64,000 nt of DNA from Clostridia bacterium (GCA_017630915.1 JAGBUH010000253.1:5196-69195), one strand, 5' to 3'. Positions 8,716 through 36,640 are shown, counted from the stretch's first letter. Made by a program: numbers and translations. The notes: generated by a model from the letters alone, not told the origin.

Positions 8716-8751
8716 ATATTTAAGTATAATTAAATTCAAATGGTGCTTTGT

Positions 8752-9510
8752 ATGGATCTTGGATTAAAGAACAAAAATGTGTTAATAGTGGGTGCCAGTA
8801 AAGGCATCGGGCGAGGAATTGTAAAAGGTTTTGCCGAAGAAAGTGCGAAAATTGTTGCGATAGCGCGTTCCGAAGAACTTTTAAAAGAAGTCGAAAGCGA
8901 AGCTTTACAATCGGGTGCATCTTCTTTCGCTTATGAAGTAAAGGACATTATGGAATGCGATACCCAAAGTTTCGCTGATGAACTTTTACAAAAATACGGC
9001 GTGTTTGACGTTGTTGTTCATAATGTCGGTGGTTCGCTTATCAGCCGTGACCATTTAGGTGGCGCTGATGATTGGAATTACGCTTTGAAATTCAATGCCG
9101 TTGCTGCTATAGATATGAATAGTCGTCTTATTCCTCCGATGATAGAACGCGGGTATGGCAGAGTTATTCATATTTCATCAATTTCTGCGATTATGCTTCG
9201 AGGCAATCCGTTATATGCTTCTGCCAAAGCGTTTTTAAACGCTTACGTAACAACGGTAGGCAGACAGCTTGCTCCGACGGGTGTTGTTTTGTGTTCGGTT
9301 ATGCCCGGCGCCGTTGCTTTTGAAGGCAGCTATTGGGACAAATCCATCAAAGCAGGTGAACCGAAGGTCGAAGATTTTTTACGCCATCATCAAGCGGTTA
9401 ACCGTTTTGGTACCCCCGAAGAAATTGCAAACGCAGTTTTATTTATGGCAAGCGACAAGTCCTCTTTTATGCAAGCGACCAATATCCCGGTTGACGGCGC
9501 TAATATGTAA
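8752..9510 (+). CDS. short-chain dehydrogenase/reductase (SDR)
   Basis: It has the Rossmann motif VGASKGIGRG and the catalytic YASAK motif. The track ORF starts at 8740, but the ATG at 8752 (MDLGLKNKNVLIVG) has a weak GGTG RBS and the usual SDR N-terminal length. The start is uncertain. Confidence 0.85.
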   Translation: MDLGLKNKNVLIVGASKGIGRGIVKGFAEESAKIVAIARSEELLKEVESEALQSGASSFAYEVKDIMECDTQSFADELLQKYGVFDVVVHNVGGSLISRDHLGGADDWNYALKFNAVAAIDMNSRLIPPMIERGYGRVIHISSISAIMLRGNPLYASAKAFLNAYVTTVGRQLAPTGVVLCSVMPGAVAFEGSYWDKSIKAGEPKVEDFLRHHQAVNRFGTPEEIANAVLFMASDKSSFMQATNIPVDGANM

Positions 9511-9519
9511 AGGTGTTTT

Positions 9520-10179
9520 ATGAAAAGAGTTTTTGATTTTACTGTAAGCCTTTTGGGTTTAATAATTCTTTCCCCTATTTTCCTCATACTTGCCCTTATG
9601 ATCGTTATCGATTCGCGTGGCGGTGTTTTCTTCCGCGGAGTTCGTGTAGGCCAACATGGTAAGGACTTCAAAATCTACAAATTTCGCAGTATGCGCCCCG
9701 ATTGCGAGGGCAAGGGAAAATGGAACGTCGGAAATAACGACGACAGAATCACCCGCGTCGGCCACTTTCTCCGCAATACAAAGTTAGACGAACTTCCTCA
9801 ATTGATAAACGTACTTAAAGGTGATATGAGTCTCGTCGGACCGCGGCCTGAATTGAGAGTGTACATAGATATGTACACCGAACGCGAAATGCCGATTCTC
9901 GATTTAAAACCCGGTGTTACCGATTGGGCTTCGATGACAAACTTCGAACAGTTTAAAGGTTTTACAGAAGCCGCAGACCCCGATGAGTATTATTTAAAAG
10001 CGGTCAGACCACTTAAACTCGAATTACAGCTTTATTATCGATATAATAACAGTTTTATCGGAGACTTGAAATGTCTATTTTGGACTGTTTACAAGGTGAT
10101 TACCAGAACGCAGAAACTCCCTGCCGATGTCCAAGCGATTGTTGATAAAAAACGAGCAGAAATGGAAAACACGGTATAA
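9520..10179 (+). CDS. small monotopic polyprenyl-phosphate sugar-phosphate transferase (PglC/WbaP C-terminal type, Bac_transf)
   Basis: 219 aa with one N-terminal hydrophobic hairpin and the motifs KFRSM, DELPQLINVLKGDMSLVGPRP. Confidence 0.9.
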   Translation: MKRVFDFTVSLLGLIILSPIFLILALMIVIDSRGGVFFRGVRVGQHGKDFKIYKFRSMRPDCEGKGKWNVGNNDDRITRVGHFLRNTKLDELPQLINVLKGDMSLVGPRPELRVYIDMYTEREMPILDLKPGVTDWASMTNFEQFKGFTEAADPDEYYLKAVRPLKLELQLYYRYNNSFIGDLKCLFWTVYKVITRTQKLPADVQAIVDKKRAEMENTV

Positions 10180-11368: not shown

Positions 11369-12307
11369 ATGGACAGCAAACAATTAGCTTGGCTTATACG
11401 ACGACACGGCATTGAAATGACGCATCTTTCGGGCGGAAGCCATATCGGTGCAATTCTTTCTGTCGCTGATATAATGGCAGTACTGTATTCTGATATTTTA
11501 AAATACGACACCACCAATCCCAAATGGTGTGACCGCGACCGTTTTATTTTAAGTAAAGGACATGCAGGAGGTTCGGTATATGCAGCTCTTGCCGAATCGG
11601 GTTTTTTCGCAGTTGACGAATTGAAAACCCACTACCAAAATGGAAGCAGACTCTCCGGTCACGTTTCTCATCATTTACCGGGCGTTGATTTTTCAACCGG
11701 TTCGTTAGGACATGGCTTATCCGCCGGCGTTGGCATGGCACTTGCCGCAAAAAAAGATAAAAAACAACACGAGGTTTTTGTTGTATTAGGCGACGGCGAA
11801 TGTAACGAAGGTTCTGTTTGGGAAGCGGCGCAAACAGCAACTCATTTTGGACTTGACAACCTCATTGCCATTGTTGACAACAACAAAATGCAAAGCCTTG
11901 ATTATTGCGTAAACACACTTGACGCAGGTTCTCTTTATGATAAATGGTTCGCTTTCGGCTGGAATACATTTGTCGTTAATGGGCACGACCATGATGCGCT
12001 TCGCGATAAAATGAATACCATAAAAAACGGCAAACCCACCGTAATAATTGCCGAAACCATCAAAGGCAAGGGCGTTTCCTTTATGGAAGAAGATATTCTT
12101 TGGCATTACCGTTTTCCGCACGATGGTTGGGAATATGACTGTGCAGTAAACGAACTTCACAAAATAAAACCTGATGGCGTACAAGACATTTATACTCCGA
12201 ACGGAATTATAAATCCTAAACTTCCTGATGCTAATGAAATCAATAAAGATATTCACCATACCATGTCCGAAACATATAAACCCACTTGGAACAAGCAGGA
12301 GGCATAA
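11369..12307 (+). CDS. transketolase, N-terminal (TPP-binding) subunit
   Basis: 312 aa with the motifs GGSHIGAILSVADIMAVLY, SKGHAG and GDGECNEGSVWEA, which together form the diphosphate-binding motif of split transketolases. Confidence 0.88.
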   Translation: MDSKQLAWLIRRHGIEMTHLSGGSHIGAILSVADIMAVLYSDILKYDTTNPKWCDRDRFILSKGHAGGSVYAALAESGFFAVDELKTHYQNGSRLSGHVSHHLPGVDFSTGSLGHGLSAGVGMALAAKKDKKQHEVFVVLGDGECNEGSVWEAAQTATHFGLDNLIAIVDNNKMQSLDYCVNTLDAGSLYDKWFAFGWNTFVVNGHDHDALRDKMNTIKNGKPTVIIAETIKGKGVSFMEEDILWHYRFPHDGWEYDCAVNELHKIKPDGVQDIYTPNGIINPKLPDANEINKDIHHTMSETYKPTWNKQEA

Positions 12308-12309
12308 TA

Positions 12310-13230
12310 ATGAGAGATACATTCGTTAAAACACTCATAGAACTTGCCAAAAGCAATCCGAATATTGAGCTTATAACAGGCGACCTTGGTTTTGGTGTAT
12401 TAAAACCTTTTTGGGAAGCATTGCCTGATCAATTCATTAACGCAGGTATCGCAGAGCAAAACATGACTTCCCTTGCGGCAGGAATGTCGTTAGAAGGCAA
12501 AACCGTTTTCACATATTCTATTGGTAATTTCCCTACACTACGATGTGTTGAACAAATCAGAAACGACTGCGCATATCACAATGCTAACGTTAAAATCGTT
12601 TGCATAGGCGGCGGTTTTGTTTACGGTTCGCTCGGCATGAGCCACCAAGCAACCGAAGATATTGCTATAATGCGTGCGCTCCCCGATGTTGCTGTATTTG
12701 CGCCATGCGATTCTTTTGAAACGGTCGCTGTAACAAAAGCTATCGCCGAATATCACGGTACGTGTTATCTTCGTCTTGGCAGGGGCGGCGAAAAGCCGAT
12801 CCATAACGGACCGCTTAACGATTTTAAAATTGGCAAAGCTATTAAAATATCCGATGGCGAACGCGTTGCTATATTTTCAACTGGCGCTATATGCGATGAA
12901 ATACTTCAAGCACGCGAAGAATTAAAGTCCAATGGAATCAATCCTGCTGTATATACCTTCCCCACCGTCAAGCCACTTGACAAAGATACTATTATCGATG
13001 TGGCAAATAAATACGATGTTATCGTCACTTGCGAAGAACACAATACCATCGGCGGATTTGGAAGCGCAGTAGCCGAGGTTATTTCGGAATTTGATCATAA
13101 AGCACGCTTACTAAAAATCGGAGTTCCTGATTGTTATTCCACTTATGTTGGAAATCAAAAATACCTTCGCGGACAGTTCGGTTTAGACGGAAAAAGTATC
13201 TCAAAAAAGATTTTGGATGCAATAAAATGA
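12310..13230 (+). CDS. transketolase, C-terminal (pyrimidine-binding) subunit
   Basis: The motifs FINAGIAEQNMTSLAAGMS and GMSHQATEDIAIMR are present. The ATG at 12310 is preceded by a GGAGG RBS, and the track start at 12286 overlaps the previous gene. Confidence 0.88.
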   Translation: MRDTFVKTLIELAKSNPNIELITGDLGFGVLKPFWEALPDQFINAGIAEQNMTSLAAGMSLEGKTVFTYSIGNFPTLRCVEQIRNDCAYHNANVKIVCIGGGFVYGSLGMSHQATEDIAIMRALPDVAVFAPCDSFETVAVTKAIAEYHGTCYLRLGRGGEKPIHNGPLNDFKIGKAIKISDGERVAIFSTGAICDEILQAREELKSNGINPAVYTFPTVKPLDKDTIIDVANKYDVIVTCEEHNTIGGFGSAVAEVISEFDHKARLLKIGVPDCYSTYVGNQKYLRGQFGLDGKSISKKILDAIK

Positions 13231-14338: not shown

Positions 14339-15445
14339 ATGATAAAACTCATGATACTCTTAGCAGTATCAATGTGCTTGGCGTATTGTTCTCAGCACGG
14401 CATATTGGTAGTTCCGCTCACAAAAAAACGAAAACTCGATATTCCTATCATAATTATTATTATCATGTTAAGTCTGTTAATCGGACTTCGAACGCACTAC
14501 GACGACACTCAAAACTATATTACAATGTTCATGGATTCGCCTACCGTTTCAGAATATCATGATTCTTCGCCAGGCTTTTTTTCAAACCCATTGTTTTATT
14601 ATTTACAGAGTTTTTTTAGACACAACGTAATGGATAATCACCACTTATTCTTTACAGTCGTAGCATTTTTCACTATTTCGTGTATCATCTGGTTTATAGC
14701 TAAATATTCGTCAAATTTCCCATTCAGCATCCTTTTGTTTTTCTGTATCGGCATGGTATTAGTTCCAATGTCTGCAATGAAGCAAGGCTTGGCGATCGCA
14801 GTAAGTTTAATAGGTATTGACCAATTGTTAAAAAAAAGATATATAGTGTATTATCTTTTACTAACTATAGCCATTCTTTTCCACGCATACGCTATAATGT
14901 TGATTGTTTTGCCATTATTTATAGGGCGACCTTGGACAATTTTTACATACGTTATTATTGGTGCCGTAATTATTGTTCTGTTCACTTTTGAATCAACAAT
15001 CACGAGTTTTTTATCCGTCGCTGAAGACGCGGGCAAAAGCTTAAACGAAGAAGTTTTATTGGATTCACAAGGCATAAACGTATTTCGATTAGCTGTTTTT
15101 GCCGTCCCACCCATACTTTCGTTCCTGTTTCTAGAACTCCTAAATCCTTCTTACAATAAAAATCGTCATTTGTTTATGAATATGAGCATACTCAGTTTTT
15201 TAATAATGTGTATGGGGATATTTAGCGCGGCCACTTTATTTGGAAGAAGTGCCGTTTATTTTGAAATAGGTACTATTTTGATTCTGCCTTGGGTAGTTGA
15301 AGAAATGTTCAACAAAGAATCCCGCGGTGCCGCATTTGTCATCGTGGGCAGTTGTTATTTACTCTTTTTTGCATATATGGTCAAAGACTTCTCATATGCA
15401 TATAGGTCTATTGATATTGTAGAATTTGTTAGATCCATAATATAG
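14339..15445 (+). CDS. EpsG-family polytopic membrane protein (Wzy-like polymerase candidate)
   Basis: 368 aa with more than 10 hydrophobic segments. GLRTHYDDTQNYITMF resembles the R..G.D...Y motif of the EpsG family. Confidence 0.6.
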   Translation: MIKLMILLAVSMCLAYCSQHGILVVPLTKKRKLDIPIIIIIIMLSLLIGLRTHYDDTQNYITMFMDSPTVSEYHDSSPGFFSNPLFYYLQSFFRHNVMDNHHLFFTVVAFFTISCIIWFIAKYSSNFPFSILLFFCIGMVLVPMSAMKQGLAIAVSLIGIDQLLKKRYIVYYLLLTIAILFHAYAIMLIVLPLFIGRPWTIFTYVIIGAVIIVLFTFESTITSFLSVAEDAGKSLNEEVLLDSQGINVFRLAVFAVPPILSFLFLELLNPSYNKNRHLFMNMSILSFLIMCMGIFSAATLFGRSAVYFEIGTILILPWVVEEMFNKESRGAAFVIVGSCYLLFFAYMVKDFSYAYRSIDIVEFVRSII

Positions 15446-21040: not shown

Positions 21041-21595
21041 ATGATCACTTCAAAAAAGGATTTAATCAATTATATTGAATCTGACAATTCGTGGTATAAT
21101 CCCAGTGGCCTTAAAAACATTTTAATCGCCAAATTCACCAATTGTCCCTATTTGAAAATAAAAAAGTATTTGTATCTTTTAAGGTATCAGGAATACTATA
21201 TAAACACTGCAAACGGCAACAAAATCAAAGGATTGCTTGGATTATATTACGAACGAAAAAAAAATAAATTGGGTTCTCTCTTAGGAATTGAAATCGGACC
21301 AAATTGTTTCGGTAAAGGTTTGCAAATTTTTCACGCAGGTTCAATAATAGTCAATTCGTCGGTACAGGCTGGAGAAAATTGCAAATTACACGGCGCGAAT
21401 TGCATCGGAAACAACGGAAAAGACGATAAAACTCCCATTTTAGGCAACGGCGTTGATATTGGATACGGCGCTGTATTGATTGGAGATATCTTTATAGCTG
21501 ATGACGTTGTTATCGGTGCTAATGCGCTCGTTAATCATTCTTTTGATACGCCTTCTTCGATAATCGCAGGCGTTCCGGCAAAAATCATCAAATAA
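21041..21595 (+). CDS. serine-acetyltransferase-like hexapeptide O-acetyltransferase
   Basis: An N-terminal helical region is followed by LbH repeats (GNGVDIGYGAVLIGDIFIADDVVIGANALV). The gene contains an A9 run at 21256..21264. Confidence 0.8.
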   Translation: MITSKKDLINYIESDNSWYNPSGLKNILIAKFTNCPYLKIKKYLYLLRYQEYYINTANGNKIKGLLGLYYERKKNKLGSLLGIEIGPNCFGKGLQIFHAGSIIVNSSVQAGENCKLHGANCIGNNGKDDKTPILGNGVDIGYGAVLIGDIFIADDVVIGANALVNHSFDTPSSIIAGVPAKIIK

Positions 21596-21617: not shown

Positions 21618-22634
21618 ATGAAATTTTCTGTAATACTTCCTGCGTTTAACGCCGAAAATACCATTAGAAAAACTCTTTTAAGTTTAATTGGACAAACACA
21701 TCAAAACTTCGAAGTTATAATTATCGATGACGGCTCTACCGATAATACACGTTTAATTTGCGAAGAATTCACTAGTTCTGATAATCGATTTGTATACATA
21801 TTCCAACCCAATTCTGGCGTTTCTAAAGCGCGAAACAATGGAATTGAACACGCTAACGGAGATTACCTTGCTTTTATAGATAGCGATGATGCCTATCATC
21901 CTGATTATTTGTCCGAATTCGTTCGATTGATTGATGGTAATCCCGAATGCGATAATTTCTGGTGCGAATATAATACAATAATTTCAACTGAAACAACGCA
22001 ATCGTATCTTAACGAACATACTGACAATACAGTACGGTATTCCAATCGCAAACAAATAATGACATTACATTCCAATGTCTTAGACGCTGCGCTTTGGAAT
22101 AAGGTTTTCAAAATTGATATTGTCAAAAACAATCGCATTAAAATGCCAGAACATATTTCATTAGGCGAAGACTTAATTTTCAATTTTAGGTTCTTGGATC
22201 ATACTCGCGATAAAATAGCAATTATAAACAAGCCACTTTATAACTATACCAAATCAGTTGACGGTTCGTTGGACAGCAAGTATCACGATAACCTAAAAGA
22301 GATTTATGATTATATCGATAGCGAATTGTTATTTTACTTGAAAAAATGGGATATTTCGGATGAGCAAATGGTGCTTTTCTATAATAGCGTTTTATTCGCG
22401 CAAGAACGTATCCTAAATAATACCTTTCGCCCACAATCTAAATTGTCATATTTTCAAAAAATCAAATACAACAAATCCATATTAAAGAGTTGCAAATTCA
22501 AAGAAGCGTTACTAAAATCAAATTGCGATATTCACCCTGCGTATAAATTCGCTTATAGAATAGCCTCTTGGCATTTGATCAAATTTCTAAATTATTTCTC
22601 ACGGATCAAAAAAATCTTCAAGGATAAATTATGA
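21618..22634 (+). CDS. glycosyltransferase family 2
   Basis: It has SVILPAFNAENTIRKTLLSLIGQTHQNFEVIIIDDGSTDNT and FIDSDDAY. Confidence 0.88.
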   Translation: MKFSVILPAFNAENTIRKTLLSLIGQTHQNFEVIIIDDGSTDNTRLICEEFTSSDNRFVYIFQPNSGVSKARNNGIEHANGDYLAFIDSDDAYHPDYLSEFVRLIDGNPECDNFWCEYNTIISTETTQSYLNEHTDNTVRYSNRKQIMTLHSNVLDAALWNKVFKIDIVKNNRIKMPEHISLGEDLIFNFRFLDHTRDKIAIINKPLYNYTKSVDGSLDSKYHDNLKEIYDYIDSELLFYLKKWDISDEQMVLFYNSVLFAQERILNNTFRPQSKLSYFQKIKYNKSILKSCKFKEALLKSNCDIHPAYKFAYRIASWHLIKFLNYFSRIKKIFKDKL

Positions 22635-23413
22635 ATCTTTTAAAATCAATACAATCTCGAATCATACAACCGTTTCAGCAGAAACATTTTGAATTAACCA
22701 AATATGGCAAGAACATCAAGTTATACGAAAATAAATTCAAAGGCAAACGTTGCTTTATTGTCGCAAACGGACCGAGTTTGCACCCAAACGACTTAGATTT
22801 ACTTCACGATAGGAACGAAATAACATTTGGAATGAACAGAATATATAAAATGTTCGAGCAAACAAAATGGCGTCCTACATTTTATGTATGCGAAGATGAG
22901 TTAATTATAAAAGAGAAACAAACCGAAATCAACGCAATCCCGACAAAAGAAAAATTCATTCCTATTGAATTAAACTGGTGGCACGGAGTTAACGTCACGG
23001 ATGCGTTATATTTCCATCTCAACTATAAAGACGAGGAACGCTTCCCCTTCAGTTTTTCACCCGATATTGCGCATCAAATCGAATGCAGAGGCACAGTCAC
23101 ATTCACATGTATGCAAATTGCCGCATATATGGGTTTTTCGGAGATTTATTTGCTTGGTGTAGACCATAATTATCAAAAAACGATTGATATTGACGGCAAC
23201 GTAGTGTTTGATCCGAATGCCAAGGATTACTTTTGTGAAGGTTATGACACCGACATAAAAGATATCGCAATTCATGATATGGGTAATAATACTCGCGCTT
23301 ATATGGATGCGAAAAAATATTGTGACGAAACTAATAAATCTAAAATTTTCAACGCAACGCGCGGCGGCAAACTTGAAGTTTTCCAAAGAGTTGATTTTGA
23401 CACATTGTTTTGA
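22631..23413 (+). CDS. DUF115 / MptE-like protein (Maf- and GT42-sialyltransferase-like fold); candidate CMP-sugar-acid transferase
   Basis: 260 aa. KGKRCFIVANGPSLHPNDLDLL...ITFGMNRIY resembles the GNGPSL nucleotide-sugar motif of Cst-type and Maf proteins, and YLLGVDHNY is the second conserved block. The start overlaps the upstream stop in an ATGA. Confidence 0.6.
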   Translation: MNLLKSIQSRIIQPFQQKHFELTKYGKNIKLYENKFKGKRCFIVANGPSLHPNDLDLLHDRNEITFGMNRIYKMFEQTKWRPTFYVCEDELIIKEKQTEINAIPTKEKFIPIELNWWHGVNVTDALYFHLNYKDEERFPFSFSPDIAHQIECRGTVTFTCMQIAAYMGFSEIYLLGVDHNYQKTIDIDGNVVFDPNAKDYFCEGYDTDIKDIAIHDMGNNTRAYMDAKKYCDETNKSKIFNATRGGKLEVFQRVDFDTLF

Positions 23414-23427
23414 AAAGGGGTATCAAA

Positions 23428-24285
23428 ATGGAAGAAAACACAAACAAGCAATATCACACGCACATAACATCAAAACACAAATTGTTTTCTCTTAACCTAA
23501 AAGAAGTTTGGCAATACAAAGACCTTATTGTATTGTTTACTAAAAGGTCCTTTACACTTACATACAAACAAACGGTTCTCGGTCCGGCGTGGATATTTTT
23601 AAACCCGTTAATAAGCGGTTTGATCTATGCTTTTGTGTTCGGCGGAATCGCAGGTATTGGAACCGATGGTGTCCCTGCAATATTGTTTTATTTAACAAGT
23701 AATGCGGTTTGGACGTTCTTTGCAGCGTGTGTGAATAAAAATGCGAGTACTTTTACTTCAAATGCAGGTGTTTTTGGTAAGGTTTACTTTCCTCGTTTAA
23801 CCACACCGATATCCAACGTGCTTTCATCGATAATACAGTTTGGCATACAGATATTATTAGTATTAGGCTTTTTAATTTATTATCTTGCCGTTGGCGAAGT
23901 TTCCCCCAATTGGATAGCCTGGATTTTTATTCCTATTGAAATTGTTCATTTGGGTTTGCTTGGACTTGGTGTTGGCATTATTATTTCTAGTCTTACTACT
24001 AAATATCGCGATTTAACCGTACTTGTAACCTTTGGTGTTCAACTTTGGATGTATATTACACCGATTGTCTACCCTATGTCACAACTCAATATGGGCTTGA
24101 TGAAAACCATTCTTATGATCAACCCTGTTACTGCACCCGTTGAAGCGATTAGATATGCAATTCTCGGTCAGGGAACTATCATGCCTATTTATCTTGTAAT
24201 CTCATGGGTTTTAACCATCGCAGTTACCATGTTCGGAATTATGATCTTTAACAAAGTTGAAAAAACCTTTATGGATACGGTCTGA
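23428..24285 (+). CDS. ABC-2 type polysaccharide/teichoic-acid exporter permease (Wzm/TagG-like)
   Basis: Six hydrophobic segments, and it sits next to a Wzt/TagH-type ATPase. I chose the ATG at 23428 because an AAGGGG RBS precedes it; the track start at 23410 is a TTG overlapping the upstream stop. Confidence 0.85.
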   Translation: MEENTNKQYHTHITSKHKLFSLNLKEVWQYKDLIVLFTKRSFTLTYKQTVLGPAWIFLNPLISGLIYAFVFGGIAGIGTDGVPAILFYLTSNAVWTFFAACVNKNASTFTSNAGVFGKVYFPRLTTPISNVLSSIIQFGIQILLVLGFLIYYLAVGEVSPNWIAWIFIPIEIVHLGLLGLGVGIIISSLTTKYRDLTVLVTFGVQLWMYITPIVYPMSQLNMGLMKTILMINPVTAPVEAIRYAILGQGTIMPIYLVISWVLTIAVTMFGIMIFNKVEKTFMDTV

Positions 24286-24294
24286 GGTGTAGTT

Positions 24295-25614
24295 ATGAGT
24301 GAACAAAGTACTAATCGAGAAATAGCAATAAAGCTTTCCAGTGTCAAAAAACAATACAAACTCGGTCAAATTGGTGGTGGCACGCTAACTGCAGATTTAC
24401 AAAGTTGGTGGGCTCGCAGACGCGGAAAAGAAGATCCCAATACAAAAATTGGTCAAGACCAACGTTTAATCGGACAAACCTTTATGGCATTAAACGGTAT
24501 TGATTTGACCGTTTATAAAGGCGAAGCGTTAGGCATCATAGGCGGAAACGGTGCAGGCAAAAGTACTATGTTAAAACTTTTAAGCCGCGTTACCGCCCCC
24601 ACCGAAGGCGAAATAGATATTTACGGTCGTATCACTTCTATGCTCGAAGTCGGCACAGGTTTCAACGGCGAACTGACCGGCCGAGAAAACGTGTATATGA
24701 ATGGCGCAATTTTAGGCATGACTAAAGCCGAAATTGATGCAAAAATGGAAGATATCATCGAGTTTTCAGAAGTTCGCGAATTTATTGATACTCCCGTAAA
24801 GCGTTATTCTTCGGGCATGTATGTTAAACTCGCATTCTCTATCGCCGCACACCTCGATTCTGAAATAATGATCATGGACGAGGTCTTGGCAGTCGGTGAT
24901 ATGGCATTTCAAAAGAAATGTCTTGATAAAATGCGCGAGGTCGCAAAGAAAGAAGGGCGAACCGTTCTATACGTTTCACATAACATGAACACCATTCGCC
25001 AGCTTTGCGATAGATGTGTTGTTTTAGAACAAGGAAAAGTTGTTTTTGAGGGGAATGTTGAGGAGGCAATAACTATATATTTAAACAAAACCGACGACGA
25101 ATTCTCTTGTTTAAATGATTTATCAAAACGAGATAGACCCAAAAGTTCAACCAACAAAGCTTTTATGCAGCAAATTGCATTTCTTAACAAAACCAAAGCG
25201 GTATGCACAAGAGGCGAGTTCTTAAAGATTAAACTTGATTGGATTGCAAAGGCAAATTTATCTGATGTCAAATTTCGAATGATTGTTCGATATAGAGATG
25301 ACTCTCCTGTTGGACTAGTTCAATCGGAAAGTTTAGGCAATTTTTCCGTTGACGAAACACAAATAACAAATCTTGAATTTGATACCAGTATGCTTGCGGA
25401 AGGAAAATACTTTTTCAGCATCGCGCTATTTCAAAGTGACGAAGTTGGAAATAGTGTCATTTTAGACCACGTTACACGCGCTTGTAGTATAGAAATATTA
25501 AATAATACTGAAGATAAGAAAATATTAAACTGGGAACATCGTTGGTGGGGTTCTATTAGATTTCCCAGCTTGAAAATTCTAAATCAAGGATTTATTAAAG
25601 ATGGAAATCATTAA
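24295..25614 (+). CDS. ABC exporter ATPase (Wzt/TagH-like) with a C-terminal beta-rich extension of about 175 aa
   Basis: Walker A is GGNGAGKST, the signature is YSSGMYVKLAF and Walker B is IMIMDEVLAVGD. Residues from about 265 to 439 extend beyond the nucleotide-binding domain, like the Wzt C-terminal glycan-binding domain. Confidence 0.88.
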   Translation: MSEQSTNREIAIKLSSVKKQYKLGQIGGGTLTADLQSWWARRRGKEDPNTKIGQDQRLIGQTFMALNGIDLTVYKGEALGIIGGNGAGKSTMLKLLSRVTAPTEGEIDIYGRITSMLEVGTGFNGELTGRENVYMNGAILGMTKAEIDAKMEDIIEFSEVREFIDTPVKRYSSGMYVKLAFSIAAHLDSEIMIMDEVLAVGDMAFQKKCLDKMREVAKKEGRTVLYVSHNMNTIRQLCDRCVVLEQGKVVFEGNVEEAITIYLNKTDDEFSCLNDLSKRDRPKSSTNKAFMQQIAFLNKTKAVCTRGEFLKIKLDWIAKANLSDVKFRMIVRYRDDSPVGLVQSESLGNFSVDETQITNLEFDTSMLAEGKYFFSIALFQSDEVGNSVILDHVTRACSIEILNNTEDKKILNWEHRWWGSIRFPSLKILNQGFIKDGNH

Positions 25615-26866
25615 ACTGATTAATATACAAAAAAAAGAACATACTCTTGAATATGAGTTCACTACTACAGAAGGTTTAAGGAAATACTTTTCTGGTAAAC
25701 CTTTTAGAATCGAATATACATTTTCTGTAGAATCCATTCCTAATTCTATAGCGGCAGTTCCTTTTGTGTGTAATGTTTTGCCTATAATATGGTTAACAAA
25801 TTCCGTGTTAGAATTAAATGAATTGGACAAGGCCTTTTATGACAGTATACCACAATTCAAACAAGGATATGTTGAAATGTTTCCAGAATGCAATTTTCTT
25901 GGAATTATTTCAGTTAAGTCTTTAGTTGAATGCGATATCCCTTCTACAGAAAAATCCGCCACCTTCTTTTCTGGCGGTCTTGATGCAGTAAATACATTGG
26001 TAATGCATTTGGATGAGAAGCCCGCGCTCATATCAATTTGGGGGTCTGATATCAAGTACGAAAATGCATCTGGTTGGAAAGTTGTTCATGATGAAATATC
26101 CAAAACTGCAAAATTGTATAATCTTAACGATATCGTAATTAGAAGCACATTTCGCGAATTCGACAATGAATACGAACTAGAAAACACAATAAAAATCAAC
26201 TGGTGGCACGACTTAAAGCATGGAATAGGTTTGTTAGGGCACGCAGCTCCATATGTATATGAACAGGGAATATCAAAATTGTATATTGCATCGTCAAACT
26301 GTCCACTAGATAAAGATATCAAGTGCGCATCTCATCCAACAATTGATAATCATGTTCGTTTTGCTCACACAAAAGTAGTTCATGATGGATATGAATATAG
26401 TCGTCAAGACAAAGCACATAATGTAGTTGAATATTCCAAGAAAAGTGGAGAAAAAGTTTCATTACACGTATGTTGGAAAACGCAAACCGGTAACAATTGT
26501 TGCAAGTGCGAAAAATGTTATCGAACGATGCTCGGTATAATTTCCGAGGGTGCGGATCCGGTGGATTTCGGTTTTTTTGAAGCACCCACTTATATACCTA
26601 ATTGCCGTCAATTTCTTATTGGTAAAAGAAATTTGGAAACAAGTATTGCTAAACGGCATTGGACACATATACATAATGCATTTGTAAATAATTTGAAAGT
26701 AATAAAAAAAACGCCATATTGGAAACATGTCAAATGGATCTATAAAAGTGATTTTTCACACCCTGAAACACTAAACATGCCCCCCAAATCATTACGAGAA
26801 TGGCTATCCCGACAAAAGTTTTATCAAAAACTTCACGACATAAAAATTAACATGAAAAAATCATAA
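25601..26866 (+). CDS. uncharacterised protein with a QueC-like PP-loop and a Cys4 cluster
   Basis: 421 aa. The PP-loop-like motif FFSGGLDAVNT is at aa 122-132. The cysteine cluster VCWKTQTGNNCCKCEKCYRTMLG (aa 290-312) aligns by eye with the QueC Zn motif C[YW]..G..CG.C..C..R..G. The ATG lies 14 nt inside the wzt 3' end. Confidence 0.45.
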   Translation: MEIIKLINIQKKEHTLEYEFTTTEGLRKYFSGKPFRIEYTFSVESIPNSIAAVPFVCNVLPIIWLTNSVLELNELDKAFYDSIPQFKQGYVEMFPECNFLGIISVKSLVECDIPSTEKSATFFSGGLDAVNTLVMHLDEKPALISIWGSDIKYENASGWKVVHDEISKTAKLYNLNDIVIRSTFREFDNEYELENTIKINWWHDLKHGIGLLGHAAPYVYEQGISKLYIASSNCPLDKDIKCASHPTIDNHVRFAHTKVVHDGYEYSRQDKAHNVVEYSKKSGEKVSLHVCWKTQTGNNCCKCEKCYRTMLGIISEGADPVDFGFFEAPTYIPNCRQFLIGKRNLETSIAKRHWTHIHNAFVNNLKVIKKTPYWKHVKWIYKSDFSHPETLNMPPKSLREWLSRQKFYQKLHDIKINMKKS

Positions 26867-32347: not shown

Positions 32348-33367
32348 ATGTCGACTAACATCAAACCCAAAATAAGCATAATCGTTCCCGTTTATAATGT
32401 CGAAAAGTACATTCACAAATGTGTTCAAAGTATTTTAGCGCAAACTTTCACAGATTATGAACTGATACTTGTTGACGACGAAAGCCCCGACACCTGCCCT
32501 GCTATATGTGACGAATATGCTACAAAGTATGAGTTTATAAAAGTTGTGCATAAAAAGAACGGCGGTCTTGCTTCCGCAAGAAACGCCGGAATGAAAATTG
32601 CATCGGGTAAATTCATTATGTTTTTCGATAGTGACGACTATGTTAGTAGCGACACTTGTCAACTAATGTACGATGCAATTTCAAAGAATCCAACTGCATG
32701 GGTTCTATCAAATATTCACCGTGTAAACGAAAACGATGAATACGTATCCGGTCTTGATGAAAATCAAGCACTTGAAATATTCAACCAATGCCCCACATAC
32801 TTTGGCGCTTTCAAAATGTCTTTATCTGGTAGCGTTTGTAATAAAATTTACAATATGGATATTATACGCGAGAACAATCTTTGGTTTGACGAAAGTGTAC
32901 GTTTTGGAGAAGATGTTCCTTTTGATTCTCCATATTGCCAACTTTGCTCTGACATTGTATTTTTACCTACGCCTTTGTATTTTTATCGCGTTGTTGATGG
33001 TAGTTTAACACATACTTATCATGCGGATCACCTGGGTGTTTATATTAAGTTGTTTGGAATTCGTTTACCTTTGATTAAAGATGAAGAAATTCCCAAGTTT
33101 TGTGATACATATTTTTATTACTTTACCGACTTGATGAAGAACACCCATGATAAAAGAAATCCGATGTCATTTTTCGAAAAAATGAGATATAATCACAAAA
33201 TGATGAATACAAAAGAGTTTATATTTTGTGCCGAAAATACAACAGGAAATAATGACAGTCCTTTATATATGCGTATTACAAGAATGCATAATTACTATTT
33301 ATTTTGGTTGTTTTTAAAACTGTGCGATATAAAGCAATTATTATTTCGTGACATAGGAGAACAATAA
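32348..33367 (+). CDS. glycosyltransferase family 2
   Basis: It has SIIVPVYNVEKYIHKCVQSILAQTFTDYELILVDDESPDTCP and FFDSDDYV. The start is either 32348 or 32336; neither has a strong RBS. Confidence 0.85.
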   Translation: MSTNIKPKISIIVPVYNVEKYIHKCVQSILAQTFTDYELILVDDESPDTCPAICDEYATKYEFIKVVHKKNGGLASARNAGMKIASGKFIMFFDSDDYVSSDTCQLMYDAISKNPTAWVLSNIHRVNENDEYVSGLDENQALEIFNQCPTYFGAFKMSLSGSVCNKIYNMDIIRENNLWFDESVRFGEDVPFDSPYCQLCSDIVFLPTPLYFYRVVDGSLTHTYHADHLGVYIKLFGIRLPLIKDEEIPKFCDTYFYYFTDLMKNTHDKRNPMSFFEKMRYNHKMMNTKEFIFCAENTTGNNDSPLYMRITRMHNYYLFWLFLKLCDIKQLLFRDIGEQ

Positions 33368-34011
33368 TGAAAACGATTGCTATAATGCCGATAAAATTAA
33401 ATAACGAGCGATTACCCGGAAAGAATACTATGTTATTGGGGGACAAACCGTTATTGCAACATCAGTTAATTGCTGTGCGAGATTCTAATATGGCGGATGA
33501 CATATTTGTTTTTTGCAGTAATGAAGCGGTTTGTGAATATTTACCCGAAGGCGTGAAGTTCTTAAAGCGTTCAGCTGAGCTTGATCTCCCTACTGCAAAT
33601 TTTTCGCAAATCTTTGAAGCGTTTTCGAGCGAAAATCCTGCTGATATTTACGTCTATGTACATGCAACGGCTCCGTTCGTTTCAGTCGAAACGATAAAAG
33701 AGTGCATTTCCGCGGTAGTAAGTGGCGAATATGATTCGGCATTTTGTGCTGTGAAAATCCAAGATTTTCTTTGGAAAGACGGAGAGCCGATGAATTTCGA
33801 TGCGCAAAATATTCCGAGAAGTCAAGACATTGAGCCGATTTTCAGAGAAACATCGGGTGTTTATGTTTTTACAAGTGATGTGTTTAATAAATACCACAGA
33901 CGAATCGGTGTCAATCCCTTTATCAAAGAAGTATCGTTCAAAGAAGCTGTTGACATTAACAATCCCGAAGATTTTCAATTAGCAGAAGTTATGATGAATA
34001 TTAACCTATAA
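33367..34011 (+). CDS. NeuA/KdsB-family cytidylyltransferase (CMP-sugar-acid synthetase type)
   Basis: 214 aa. MKTIAIMPIKLNNERLPGKN is the N-terminal signature of acylneuraminate/Kdo cytidylyltransferases. There is a TAATG overlap with the upstream gene. Confidence 0.8.
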   Translation: MKTIAIMPIKLNNERLPGKNTMLLGDKPLLQHQLIAVRDSNMADDIFVFCSNEAVCEYLPEGVKFLKRSAELDLPTANFSQIFEAFSSENPADIYVYVHATAPFVSVETIKECISAVVSGEYDSAFCAVKIQDFLWKDGEPMNFDAQNIPRSQDIEPIFRETSGVYVFTSDVFNKYHRRIGVNPFIKEVSFKEAVDINNPEDFQLAEVMMNINL

Positions 34012-34021
34012 GGAGTAACTT

Positions 34022-35611
34022 ATGAATTCGGTAAAAGTTTTAGACGTAACATTACGTGACGGCGGTTGCGTTATTGATTTTAATTTCGGACAAGCTTATA
34101 TGGAGCAAATTTTAGGTAATCTTGAAAAATCCGGTGTTGATATCATCGAATTAGGTTATCTTGATGCCAAAAAAGGCACTCCTGAGGGGAGAACTCAATT
34201 TTGTGACGAAAAAGTTGTACGCCAAGGTTTTCTCAAACAGAAGAAACAGGGTACCACCTATGTTGCAATGTTCGACTATGGAAAGTTTGACCCCGATACT
34301 TTGGAGCAATGCGACGGAAACGGCATTGACGGTTTACGTATTGCCTTTCATAAAAAAGACCGTTTGAATATGATTTCAACCGCGAAAAAGGTATTGGAAA
34401 AAGGTTATCAACTGTTTATTCAACCGATGACGATTATGCGTTACAGCGATGAAGAATTGTTGGAACTCATCAACGTTGTTAACACCGAACTTGCAAGAGC
34501 TACTGCCTTTTATGTTGTTGACAGCTTTGGTGAAATGCGTATGAACGACCTTAACCGCGTTGTTCATCTTGTAGACCATAACCTTAACCCTAATATACAA
34601 ATGGGCTTCCATTCCCACAATAATTTGCAGTTATCCTATTCTAACGCCGTTACACTTTTACAATTTTTCTCGTCCCGAAACGTGATAATTGACGCATCTA
34701 TTCTTGGTATGGGCAAAGGTGCAGGTAACCTTAATACAGAGCTTTTCCTTGAACACCTTAATCTTTATTATAACAAGAATTACAAAATAGAACCGCTTCT
34801 CGAAGTTATTGACAAGGTTGTAAACACAATTCGTGCCGAATTCTATTGGGGATATTCGATTGAATATTATCTTTCTTCGGTTAATCACTGTACGCCGAGT
34901 TATGCCGGACACTTTTATAAGAAACACATGTTGCCCGTCGAACAAGTTGCCGAATTGCTTGGCATGATTGCGGAAGAAAAGAAGATATCCTTCGATAAAG
35001 AATATGCCGAACAGTTATATCTTTCCTACAACGCAAGACGTCATGCTAATGACGACCCGACAATTCTTGCCCTTACCGAAAAAATCAAGGGTAAACGTGT
35101 TTTACTTCTCGCCCCGGGCAAACGTTTGACCGAAAAGCAAGAAGAAATCAATGCGCTCATCAACTCCAACGACGTTATTAGTATTTCGCTTAATGCTTTT
35201 GATAAATTTGATACAGATTTTGTTTTAACAACACGTGTCGATGCTTTCAATAATGCATTGCAGCAAAACAAGAAAATTATCGCGACAAGCGGCGTTTGTG
35301 AGTCTTCTTACGAAAATGTCTATTTGATTGACTATGAAAAATGGATTACCATCGAAAATGGAGTAAACGATTCTTCCGGAATAGTTGCCTTGAAACTCAT
35401 GGCAGCTTGTGGTGCTTCTGAAATCATTCTGGCAGGATTTGACGGTTTTTCGGTTGATATTAACAGCAACTATTACGACAAAACCATGCGCCGTCCCGTT
35501 ACCGAAGAGCAAGCAAGACAGCGCAACGAATATTTTAGTACATACGTGCGCAAATTACGCGTAAATACTCCTGTAACATATCTTACAAAATCACTTTACG
35601 AGGAAGAATAA
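34022..35611 (+). CDS. fusion protein: N-terminal DRE-TIM (HMGL-like, DmpG-type) aldolase domain plus C-terminal DUF115/MptE-like domain
   Basis: 529 aa. Residues 1 to about 340 carry VLDVTLRDGG (Asp metal ligand), GFHSHNN (His-x-His ligands) and GMGKGAGNLNTE. Residues from about 345 to 500 carry KGKRVLLLAPGKRL and IILAGFDGF, matching the two blocks of the stand-alone DUF115 protein at 22631. Confidence 0.6.
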   Translation: MNSVKVLDVTLRDGGCVIDFNFGQAYMEQILGNLEKSGVDIIELGYLDAKKGTPEGRTQFCDEKVVRQGFLKQKKQGTTYVAMFDYGKFDPDTLEQCDGNGIDGLRIAFHKKDRLNMISTAKKVLEKGYQLFIQPMTIMRYSDEELLELINVVNTELARATAFYVVDSFGEMRMNDLNRVVHLVDHNLNPNIQMGFHSHNNLQLSYSNAVTLLQFFSSRNVIIDASILGMGKGAGNLNTELFLEHLNLYYNKNYKIEPLLEVIDKVVNTIRAEFYWGYSIEYYLSSVNHCTPSYAGHFYKKHMLPVEQVAELLGMIAEEKKISFDKEYAEQLYLSYNARRHANDDPTILALTEKIKGKRVLLLAPGKRLTEKQEEINALINSNDVISISLNAFDKFDTDFVLTTRVDAFNNALQQNKKIIATSGVCESSYENVYLIDYEKWITIENGVNDSSGIVALKLMAACGASEIILAGFDGFSVDINSNYYDKTMRRPVTEEQARQRNEYFSTYVRKLRVNTPVTYLTKSLYEEE

Positions 35612-36081
35612 TGTCCAAAATAAAGATTCTCGCTATGGATGTTGACGGAACCTTGACTGACGGAAAGATATACGTTGGAGCTCAAGGCGAAGTTATGAAG
35701 GCATTTAACGTAAAAGACGGTTACGGTATTGCTCAACTTCTCCCCAAAATGTCTATAACGCCCGTCATCATTACCGGCCGTAAATCCGAAATTGTTTCCC
35801 GTCGCGCAGAAGAATTGAAAATCAATAACGTTTACCAAGGTGTAAACGACAAGTTAACCAAATTAAGCGAAATTGCTTTTGAATTTGGTGTCACACTTGA
35901 AAACGTCGCATATATCGGTGACGACCTTAATGATATTGAATGCATCGAGCATTGTGGACTTACTGCATGTCCGTCAGATTCCATAAACGAGGTTTTGCGA
36001 ATGGTCGATTATATTTGCCCTTCTTGCGGCGGTGACGGTGCGGTTCGTGAATTTATCGAATATATCTCGGAAATGAACTGA
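35611..36081 (+). CDS. KdsC-family HAD-IIIA sugar-acid-phosphate phosphatase
   Basis: 156 aa with AMDVDGTLTDGKIY, ITGRKSEIV and GDDLNDIE, typical of Kdo-8-P or Kdn/Neu-9-P phosphatases. There is a TAATG overlap with the upstream gene. Confidence 0.8.
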   Translation: MSKIKILAMDVDGTLTDGKIYVGAQGEVMKAFNVKDGYGIAQLLPKMSITPVIITGRKSEIVSRRAEELKINNVYQGVNDKLTKLSEIAFEFGVTLENVAYIGDDLNDIECIEHCGLTACPSDSINEVLRMVDYICPSCGGDGAVREFIEYISEMN

Positions 36082-36085
36082 TAAA

Positions 36086-36640
36086 ATGCTTGAATTTTTT
36101 TACCGATTGCCCTTATCATATGCTGTATTCGGTGTGGTTACGATTATCGTTATTTGGGCTATTGCGCATTATAAATTTGCGTTACGTGGATATGGCAGTG
36201 GAATAGACGCGAAGCAGCATTGGAAAGTTTTCAACTACATTGTTGTAATTTTATCAGTGATACTTATTTTATACGCTACGATATTTTCGCGCAGCGATGA
36301 AATAACGAAACTCATTCTGCAACCGTTCTATTCCTTTAAAATTGCAAAAATCCAAAACGAAATGTACCGATCAATGTTAATGAATATTGTTTTATTTGTT
36401 CCATTCGGGCTATCATTTGCATCTATTTTGTCACAAAGACAAACAGTTTCAACAAGAATTGCCATAACTTCCCTATTGGGACTGCTTTTGAGCGTTCTAA
36501 TTGAGTCTGTACAATATTTTTGCAAATTGGGCGAGGCATGGACCGACGATGTAATTTGCAACACATTAGGGGCTTTTATAGGCTCGTTAACGTTGGTACT
36601 TTGGAAAGTTTATTTTTTAAAAAAACATGATTATACATAA
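36086..36640 (+). CDS. VanZ-like membrane protein
   Basis: 184 aa with 4-5 hydrophobic segments and the motifs NIVLFVPFGLSF and ESVQYF...DDVICNTLGAFIG. Confidence 0.65.
   Translation: MLEFFYRLPLSYAVFGVVTIIVIWAIAHYKFALRGYGSGIDAKQHWKVFNYIVVILSVILILYATIFSRSDEITKLILQPFYSFKIAKIQNEMYRSMLMNIVLFVPFGLSFASILSQRQTVSTRIAITSLLGLLLSVLIESVQYFCKLGEAWTDDVICNTLGAFIGSLTLVLWKVYFLKKHDYT

Follow-up and report, generated by a model that had tools for sequence, protein, structure and literature searches.

We analyzed a stretch of 64,000 nucleotides from a Clostridia bacterium (GCA_017630915.1, JAGBUH010000253.1:5196-69195), referred to below, at its full length, as the window. An operon-like array on the + strand (8740-36640) forms a polysaccharide locus, in which a gene at 22631..23413 (+ strand) encodes a stand-alone MptE-like/DUF115 protein of 260 amino acids (aa), identified by PF01973, its predicted fold and its motifs. 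This protein is probably the transferase for the cytidine monophosphate (CMP)-activated sugar acid produced by a cassette of the same array (33367-36081). An earlier note, made from the sequence alone, had proposed this role, and it is well supported by the linkage to a cytidylyltransferase gene in 25/25 loci, by a reverse test (3/3) and by the ranking of solved folds. The protein is a member of the PF01973 family, its motifs are in register with those of a known transferase, and it is tightly linked, in both directions, to three kinds of CMP-ulosonate pathway. Its fold and chemistry are of a known kind, that of the Maf/GT42-like CMP-ulosonate transferases.

Linkage to CMP-ulosonate pathways

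The gene neighbourhood is the strongest and decisive evidence for a role as CMP-ulosonate transferase. Related loci were taken from a collection with one genome per species (80 loci), from exact-protein look-ups (3) and from searches via the aldolase of the cassette (3), and were scored by tblastn and Pfam. Among the Clostridia loci, 25 have more than 2 kb of downstream flank, and in all of these a cytidylyltransferase gene (CTP_transf_3) was present at most 8.3 kb downstream of the DUF115 gene; the five Clostridia loci without it are contigs that end early. The two genes are directly adjacent in L009, L010, L012, L014, L016, L017, L031 and L086. Starting in reverse from aldolase homologs, a MptE-like gene was found no more than 5.4 kb upstream in 3/3 loci (Lacrimispora, Diplocloster and a metagenome contig).

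The related loci are distributed in three pathway groups. In group A (mostly 57-78% identity to the window protein, with L023, L031 and L046 at 35-49%), a cytidylyltransferase of the window type and a DmpG-type aldolase come after the DUF115 gene. The cytidylyltransferase orthologs, 58-83% identical, are downstream of DUF115 in all group A loci; the aldolase occurs in a long form (~528 aa) or a short form (~340 aa), and KdsC was present wherever the downstream region allowed its detection. In the nine loci of group B (41-52% identity), KdsB, KdsA (DAHP_synth_1) and KdsD (SIS + CBS) come directly after DUF115, which corresponds to the canonical pathway of CMP-3-deoxy-D-manno-octulosonate (CMP-Kdo). 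KdsA, KdsB and KdsD were found in 6/6 group B loci scanned; seven loci of the group have a downstream region in which KdsC could be detected, and it follows in all of them. None of the families GT30, GT99 and GT107 is among the recurrent families of the six scanned loci. Group C (31-39% identity; Chloroflexota, Bacteroidota and others) consists of clusters of nonulosonic-acid type, and a NeuB homolog was detected in 10 of its 28 loci bearing CTP_transf_3.

Clades which track three CMP-ulosonate pathways, together with a DUF115 gene that is the sole recurrent candidate in complete CMP-Kdo operons, are best explained by a CMP-ulosonate transferase. Concerning DUF115, PF01973 or MptE-like proteins in polysaccharide synthesis, nothing specific was found in the searchable literature.

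One group C locus was inspected on its own. In L044 (1548..13171; Pelolinea sp., Chloroflexota) the DUF115 homolog is accompanied by NeuB, two CTP_transf_3 genes (one of them a HAD-phosphatase fusion) and a short-chain dehydrogenase/reductase (SDR), and also by a radical-SAM/SPASM enzyme, a KpsS/KpsC-like Capsule_synth protein, a 2-hydroxyacid dehydrogenase and PMT_2 (GT-C). The gene set looks like that of an elaborate pathway to a nonulosonic acid in this phylum.

Relation to the exporter

The DUF115 gene is followed by the genes of an ATP-binding cassette (ABC) exporter: the ABC-2 permease Wzm (23428..24285, + strand, 285 aa; PF01061, 63.8 bits) and the ATPase Wzt (24295..25614, + strand; PF00005) with a C-terminal Wzt_C domain (PF14524, 35.5 bits for a cut-off of 30.4). 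No Wzx gene is present between 8740 and 36640, and Wzm/Wzt is therefore the sole exporter type at the window locus. From this adjacency the earlier note had suggested a terminal or capping residue that licenses export. Such an enzyme would be a cap transferase: a single ulosonic acid at the non-reducing end would stop polymerisation, be read by the carbohydrate-binding domain (CBD) of Wzt and license ABC export. This role is unlikely, though not negligibly so. It would fit the Wzt_C domain above the Pfam cut-off, the array without Wzx, and the fact that the DUF115 gene abuts wzm here and in L001, L005, L006, L011 and L013. It also has a precedent, since a terminal beta-Kdo, added by WbbB in Klebsiella O12 and Raoultella, ends elongation and potentiates export (PMC12887879), and Wzt CBDs are reported to recognise modified termini (PMC9445017).

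However, homologs with the same cassette, 57-78% identical, lie beside Wzx (L003/L004, L017, L018, L025 and L086; also L031 at 45%), and Wzx pathways need no export-licensing cap. Wzx is directly downstream of DUF115 in L003/4, L018 and L046 and directly upstream in L017, L025 and L031; even the 78%-identical enzyme (L003) sits in a Wzx pathway. Wzm/Wzt itself occurs in only 5 of 83 distinct related loci (L001, L002/5, L006, L011 and L013). The C-terminal domain of Wzt is 24-30% identical between loci (undetectable in L011) versus 86-94% for the nucleotide-binding domain (NBD), in loci whose DUF115 proteins are 60-74% and whose cassettes are 60-83% identical. The CBD varies while DUF115 and the cassette stay conserved; what it tracks is therefore not just the conserved sugar acid. 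Alternative terminal epitopes could come from the two pyruvyl transferases of the locus.

With close homologs beside Wzx and a divergent Wzt CBD, adjacency to wzm/wzt loses its value as a sign of an export-licensing cap. The DUF115 gene tends to adjoin whichever exporter its locus uses, and the enzyme is not specific to ABC-type export. A cap role has some small chance of applying at the window locus, though the comparative data point elsewhere. In a softer reading, the sugar acid would be the last residue added before export, whichever the exporter.

The combination of a conserved Wzt NBD with a variable CBD is visible when the window is compared to L001, L005, L011 and L013. The same modular pattern is known for the serotype-specific Wzt of E. 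coli O8/O9a.

The gene and its protein family

The 260-aa open reading frame (ORF) contains all the peptides that the earlier note had quoted (CFIVANGPSLHPNDLDLL, FGMNRIY and LLGVDHNY). Its ATG (22631-22633) overlaps the TGA (22632-22634) of the preceding GT2 glycosyltransferase gene as ATGA (22631-22634), as had also been read, and AAGGA lies 6-11 nt upstream of this ATG. At the other end the stop codon is TGA 23411-23413, adjoined by a GGGG Shine-Dalgarno sequence (23417-23420) and then by ATG 23428 of the permease gene. The stop had been described as overlapping the TTG and ribosome-binding site (RBS) region of that gene. Translation of the permease probably does not begin at this TTG (23410); ATG 23428 is preferred because the resulting Wzm length of 285 aa matches homologous loci (283 and 285 aa), in which Wzm starts 10-12 nt past the DUF115 stop. 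With the start at ATG 23428, the DUF115 stop therefore abuts the permease RBS without overlapping the permease start.

PF01973 (the MptE-like/DUF115/Maf_flag10 core) matched residues 22-183 with 55.8 bits (gathering cut-off 34.6, E 6e-15), covering model positions 10-170 of 171, which bears out the description as a stand-alone DUF115 protein. A word-indexed database search returned 7,861 matches, of which the best 120 were all of about 260 aa and 65-78% identical. An exhaustive search among 1.84 billion cluster representatives returned 6,489 matches (clusters at 50% identity), 847 of them below 1e-30. Named sources of matches are gut and rumen Clostridia, e.g. Dysosmobacter, Butyricicoccus, Lachnospiraceae and metagenome-assembled genomes (MAGs) labelled 'Eubacteriales'. 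Judged by its sequence, 22631..23413 is thus a genuine gene and no chance ORF.

In many relatives from the exhaustive search, the domain is part of a giant multidomain protein (1,000-2,400 aa) that was matched in 2-4 stretches. P0123 (1,170 aa) is a fusion of two MptE-like and two GT2 domains. From their sequences, such giant relatives look like single-polypeptide polymerases for ulosonic-acid-containing polymers. In one further class (about 430 aa), some 200 extra residues are present at the N-terminus.

Fold and comparison with solved structures

An AlphaFold (AF2) model of the DUF115 protein, built on 30 homologs, is confident (predicted local distance difference test, pLDDT, 86.8; predicted TM-score, pTM, 0.88). 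Foldseek against the PDB ranked Maf 5MU5 first (E 2e-7, TMq 0.55) and CstII 1RO8 second (1ro8_A, GT42; E 1.8e-5, TMq 0.46). These were followed by the Pasteurella (P. multocida) sialyltransferase 9C08 (E 3.4e-3, TMq 0.42) and, in fourth position, by the Methanocaldococcus jannaschii MptE pterin kinase 8SD5, a 6-hydroxymethylpterin diphosphokinase (HPPK; E 4.4e-3, TMq 0.38, 159 aligned columns); the GT29 sialyltransferases rank after it. Since Maf and CstII rank above MptE, the label 'sialyltransferase-like' given by the earlier note is appropriate, and the structure comparison does not place the protein with the pterin pyrophosphokinases. No Pfam match to GT52 (Lst-type) was obtained and no GT52 structure is among the top 50 Foldseek matches; the GT42 Pfam model did not match the protein even at E <= 1.

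For the comparison with CstII, hhalign was too weak alone, and we relied on Foldseek and on pairwise alignment calibrated by shuffling, using a CstII sequence verified to be identical to 1RO7_A. The colinear alignment scored z = 9.4 in semi-global mode (free end gaps) and z = 7.9 in local mode versus 300 shuffles. It pairs ANGPSL45-50 with GNGPSL8-13, N69 (M-N-R-I-Y) with Asn31 (C-N-Q-F-Y), and Y181 with Tyr156. A gapless reading by eye (offset 24) pairs R153/T155 to G176-V-D178 with R129/T131 to G152-I-D154 of CstII. The GT42 likeness pointed out in the earlier note (GNGPSL followed by an N-R/Q-Y segment) is thus in register with CstII. HMMER alignments to Maf (phmmer, hmmsearch) place FIVANGPSL against FIVGSGPSI (residues 42-50) and GFSEIYLLGVD against GFRELYLFGVD (residues 168-178), so that D178 lands on Maf Asp415; the match covers residues 250-416 of the 666 of the Maf chain. 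Going by its sequence and model, the DUF115 protein would work in a GT42/Maf-like manner, yet it is no GT42 member, and from sequence alone membership in any solved family is not claimable.

The name of the Pfam family, taken from the archaeal HPPK, invites another reading: a MptE-like kinase or pyrophosphokinase would phosphorylate a sugar-acid precursor or another metabolite with ATP, and the protein would be no glycosyltransferase. The fourth Foldseek rank of the M. jannaschii HPPK is in line with it, as is the phosphatase of the cassette, which implies that a phosphorylated intermediate exists. Nevertheless this reading is very improbable. The E-values of Maf and CstII are better by 3-4 orders of magnitude, the CstII register includes Asn31 (N69), the catalytic Asp of Maf is present, and P0123 joins the MptE-like domain to GT2 domains. 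The DUF115 gene has no genes of folate or pterin metabolism around it. Moreover, the KdsD-KdsA-KdsC-KdsB set of group B is complete and needs a Kdo transferase rather than an extra kinase, and no known Kdo-transferase family recurs there. With the MptE structure (8SD5) the protein has in common a Pfam family name and a Rossmann-like nucleotide-binding core; unlike MptE, it has sugar-binding motifs of GT42 type.

Likeness to known transferases

The Maf proteins (M. magneticum 5MU5, C. botulinum CbMaf and G. kaustophilus GkMaf) have in common with the DUF115 protein the PF01973 domain, the x-G-P-S loop and the G-F-x-E-L/I-Y-L-x-G-V-D strand. Both are tied to a CMP-ulosonic acid donor pathway and carry the essential Asp (D415 in Maf, D178 here). 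Asp415 of Mm Maf was reported as essential (bioRxiv 10.1101/2020.06.03.131540). Maf enzymes transfer both N-acetylneuraminic acid (Neu5Ac) and Kdo from CMP donors (bioRxiv 10.1101/2020.06.03.131540; PMC11339370), and CbMaf accepts CMP-Kdo besides CMP-Neu5Ac. The differences concern size and context. Maf proteins have ~630-670 aa with flanking flagellin-binding domains, whereas the DUF115 protein has ~260 aa without them, and identity is ~15% over the structural alignment. Maf genes are located in flagellar glycosylation islands, the DUF115 gene in a polysaccharide operon, so that its acceptor would be a lipid-linked glycan. Although its best structural and sequence neighbour is a flagellin glycosyltransferase, Maf-type O-glycosylation, i.e. 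transfer of the ulosonic acid onto Ser/Thr residues of flagellin, pilin or an S-layer protein at the cell surface, is the least probable reading, given the absence of the domains found N- and C-terminal to the PF01973 core of Maf proteins, an operon with a phosphoglycosyl transferase, about 12 glycosyltransferases (GTs), acetyl and pyruvyl transferases and an exporter and with no flagellin or flagellar genes, and a polysaccharide context kept in all related loci inspected.

Returning to a glycan-directed transferase, CstII and CstI (C. jejuni; 1RO7/1RO8, 2P2V) are close in length (259-291 aa vs 260 aa) and likewise have a single-domain modified GT-A fold. Their motifs GNGPSL, hydrophobic-N-Q/R-hydrophobic-Y and R-x-T...G-x-x-E-I-Y-L-x-G-x-D-x-Y are colinear with those of the DUF115 protein. 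In CstII the acceptor is a glycan and the donor a CMP-activated ulosonic acid, as predicted for the DUF115 protein. Unlike in CstII, the donor would not be Neu5Ac, because the window locus is without a NeuB/NeuC pathway, and the host is a Gram-positive-type Clostridia instead of a Campylobacter making lipooligosaccharide.

WaaZ (GT73), the Kdo III transferase of the E. coli K-12/R2 lipopolysaccharide core, is also glycan-directed and of similar length (283 aa). It gives a weak local match over a T-x-x-F...Q-I-A...G-x-D block (TIGR04437 E 3e-4, hhalign E 1e-3), its S-G-P-T, V-N-G and G-L-D motifs are colinear, and the L085 homolog has a faint match to PF27901 (WaaZ_KDO_III). The TIGR04437 score of the DUF115 protein is 20.2 bits for a cut-off of 200. 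This lead from NCBIfam stayed suggestive only: a comparison with WaaZ of E. coli K-12 gave an hhalign probability of 21% and a pairwise z of about 4, less than the highest value among the shuffles. WbbB (GT99), KpsC-KpsS (GT107) and KrkA (GT140) likewise use a CMP donor to add ulosonic acid in polysaccharide assembly, but they have an unrelated fold and a retaining mechanism with a covalent Asp adduct, and no sequence or structural match to the DUF115 protein. Some Chloroflexota relatives have a KpsS/C-like gene besides the DUF115 gene, which implies distinct roles.

The donor cassette

The cassette begins with a CMP-ulosonic acid synthetase of the CTP_transf_3 family (33367..34011, + strand, 214 aa; PF02348, 75.9 bits). 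This protein is closest to PseF/NeuA and farther from KdsB: its best NCBIfam model is PseF (58.8 bits, below cut-off) and its best PDB matches are NeuA enzymes. It is followed by a two-domain aldolase (HMGL-like; 34022..35611, + strand, 529 aa; PF00682). The aldolase sequence matched models of 4-hydroxy-2-oxovalerate aldolase with 95-105 bits (below cut-off) and PDB entries 3dxi and 1nvm; its structural model (pLDDT 84.5) matched 4lrt, 1nvm and 3dxi in Foldseek with E ~1e-15 (TIM barrel). Sequence and model together suggest that its N-terminal part is a DmpG-type class II pyruvate aldolase, a predicted ulosonate-phosphate synthase. The third member is a HAD phosphatase of the KdsC/YrbI family (35611..36081, + strand, 156 aa; TIGR01670, 163.1 bits for a cut-off of 106.95). 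It scored 144.6 bits, below 180, with the model of 2-keto-3-deoxynononic acid (Kdn)-9-phosphate phosphatase, and its PDB matches are KdsC and Kdn-9-P phosphatases (E ~1e-31 to 1e-33). By homology it is predicted to remove the phosphate of the ulosonate phosphate before CMP activation.

The earlier note had seen in this cassette the maker of a CMP-activated sugar acid. The cytidylyltransferase and the phosphatase agree with this; a NeuB- or KdsA-type synthase is absent, and its place would be taken by the DmpG-type aldolase. The aldolase would condense pyruvate and a sugar phosphate to an ulosonate phosphate, which the KdsC-type phosphatase would dephosphorylate and the NeuA/PseF-like cytidylyltransferase would convert to the CMP-sugar. 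By analogy, the order would parallel KdsA, KdsC and KdsB, but with a condensation independent of phosphoenolpyruvate (PEP). The product is presumably a CMP-activated 3-deoxy-2-ulosonic acid, Kdo- or sialic-acid-like. The searchable literature held nothing specific on a route combining aldolase, cytidylyltransferase and KdsC.

The C-terminal domain of the aldolase (~190 aa, residues ~340-529) gave no match in a PDB profile search, and the short-form aldolases (~340 aa; L017, L018) are without it. PDB entry 3DXI is titled 'N-terminal domain' of a Bacteroides homolog, and the two-domain form is therefore present there too. By eye, this domain shows GKRVLLLAPGK ... SISLN ... DSSG..ALKL..ACGA.EIILAGFDGF, which resembles the DUF115/CstII motif pair. 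It could be a second nucleotide-binding domain of this superfamily, fused to the aldolase; hhalign gave 19-21% with the first motif only, the PDB profile was empty, and the whole-chain Foldseek search was dominated by the TIM barrel.

Conserved residues and predicted mechanism

The motifs of the DUF115 protein are R40-C-F-I-V-A-N-G-P-S-L50, F66-x-M-N-R-I-Y72, T155-V-T157, G168-F-S-E-I-Y-L-L-G-V-D178-H179 and N241-A-T-R-G-G246. Across 76 homologs of the three pathway groups, N46-G-P-S-L50, N69, R70, T155-V-T157, G168, G176, D178, H179 and T243-x-G245 are kept, with D178 conserved in at least 90% of groups A and B and at least 85% of group C. A strict comparison of group A with group B (at least 90% conservation) gave no specificity residues. 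On looser inspection, E88, D89, Y200, D206, D208, H215, T221 and R244 are common to A and B and absent from C.

We propose that the protein would be a minimal single-domain transferase with a Maf/GT42-like modified GT-A fold, using a CMP-activated 3-deoxy-2-ulosonic acid. The R-C-F-I-V-A-N-G-P-S-L loop and the strand-loop formed by T155-V-T157 and G168...G176-V-D178 would hold CMP, as in CstII and Maf; N69 and R70 would touch the sugar acid; and D178, equivalent to Maf Asp415, would supply the catalytic base together with H179. Transfer would probably proceed by inversion and give an alpha-linked residue. It would take place on the cytoplasmic face, onto a lipid-linked glycan intermediate of the polysaccharide locus, where the ulosonic acid may be attached at a late point, right before export, as a terminal residue or a side branch. 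The residue roles and the stereochemistry, like the donor and the acceptor, are those which we infer from these comparisons.

Several observations weigh against this assignment. With values of 0.46-0.55 the TM-scores are moderate, and the structural neighbours of the protein also include the MptE kinase. hhalign against CstII gave a probability of 35% (E 4e-4) over the C-terminal half only, and sequence searches of the PDB returned only a marginal Maf match (E 1 with the single sequence, 0.13 with the family profile). In group C, a CTP_transf_3 homolog was found within the available flanks (<=10 kb) in only 28/50 loci. The four GT4 genes of the locus could in principle use the CMP-sugar, and GT4 includes some sialyltransferases. 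Finally, the catalytic base of CstII, His188 (in an enzyme where Tyr156/Tyr162 bind phosphate and Asn31 contacts sialic acid), has an ambiguous counterpart: His188 aligns with N219, and H215 with His184, while Tyr162 aligns with V192. H179, near-universal among the homologs, is an alternative base.

Other features of the locus

The array starts with an SDR, a small phosphoglycosyl transferase (Bac_transf), an acyltransferase and a split transketolase, followed by GT4, an EpsG-family membrane protein, two GT2, GT4, a hexapeptide acetyltransferase and two GT2. Then come a WcaB/EpsC-like acetyltransferase (21041), GT2 (21618), DUF115 (22631), Wzm and Wzt with Wzt_C, and after these a 421-aa protein, a pyruvyl transferase, GT2, GT4, a second pyruvyl transferase and two GT2. 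CTP_transf_3 (33367), the HMGL-like protein of 529 aa (34022), the HAD phosphatase (35611) and VanZ form the 3' end. Downstream of the array, clpX, clpP and tig lie on the other strand.

The GT2 glycosyltransferase coupled to the DUF115 gene through ATGA (21618..22634, + strand; PF00535, 134 bits) may build the acceptor residue. Its homologs (33-44% identity) are directly upstream of DUF115 in L005, L009, L010, L012 and L015, and further upstream in L011, L017 and L025. The WcaB/EpsC-like hexapeptide O-acetyltransferase before it (21041..21595, + strand; NCBIfam EpsC/WcaB-like, below cut-offs) is 50-68% identical in 9 related loci (L001, L002/5, L006, L011, L014, L015 and the Kdo-type L020 and L028), and is directly upstream of DUF115 in L014, L020 and L028. 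It is a candidate that may O-acetylate the ulosonic acid or its acceptor.

The 421-aa ORF (25601..26866, + strand) shares 14 nt with the end of wzt and gave no match in Pfam, NCBIfam, PDB or PADLOC. By eye, it has a PP-loop ATP-pyrophosphatase-like motif (SGGLDA) and, at the C-terminus, a group of Cys residues (CWKTQTGNNCCKCEKCYRT) that resembles the Zn sites of QueC-type proteins; going by these motifs, a glycan carboxylate may be the substrate that its product adenylates or amidates. At the 5' end of the locus, the split transketolase (N + pyrimidine/C subunits), the SDR and the small Bac_transf occupy 11369..13230 and 8740..10179 (+ strand). The transketolase pair recurs in L002 and L086, and the transketolase/SDR set suggests, as a further product, an unusual sugar that is branched or chain-modified. 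The EpsG-family (Wzy-like) membrane protein (14339..15445, + strand) occurs beside Wzm/Wzt, and L001 and L002 likewise combine an EpsG-like protein with Wzm/Wzt without Wzx; this may reflect a mixed or two-part assembly scheme, or a non-polymerase role of the EpsG-like protein. A VanZ-family membrane protein (36086..36640, + strand) closes the locus directly after the phosphatase; it is placed likewise in L003 and L031, and VanZ is near the locus in L085. Before the array, a BspA-type leucine-rich-repeat protein with a C-terminal type I dockerin (6904..8565, + strand) points to a cellulosome-bearing Clostridia host. Anti-phage defence was considered and set aside, PADLOC giving no matches.

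Implications for Clostridia and for the MptE-like family

New, or absent from the searchable literature, are the stand-alone minimal architecture, the glycan-directed context in Clostridia, the clades that track donor pathways and the pairing with an aldolase-based donor route. The PEP-independent aldolase route is the most novel of these. More tentatively, and with somewhat less than even confidence, the DUF115 gene and its cassette could constitute an undescribed, self-contained module, widespread in gut and rumen Clostridia. In such a module the DmpG-type aldolase would replace the PEP-dependent KdsA/NeuB and provide a CMP-ulosonate (Kdo- or Kdn-like, or a new isomer) without PEP, the DUF115 protein would add this sugar to cell-surface polysaccharide and found a new glycan-directed GT family, and the sister clades would be the missing Kdo transferases of Gram-positive-type bacteria with complete KdsABCD operons.

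The comparison also brings a caution: adjacency to wzm/wzt should not be taken as a sign of an export-licensing cap. The compact 260-aa protein would offer a scaffold for glyco-engineering with CMP-sugar acids. The large 'MptE-like protein' family (more than 7,800 sequences; 847 clusters at 50% identity below 1e-30) receives a testable function, linked to three kinds of CMP-sugar pathway, one of them with a pyruvate aldolase. Acidic ulosonic sugars (sialic acids, Kdo, pseudaminic and legionaminic acids) govern how bacterial surfaces are read by host immunity, lectins and phages; to our knowledge, almost nothing has been established on their occurrence in gut Clostridia or on the enzymes that install them, for which the DUF115 protein is a probable candidate.

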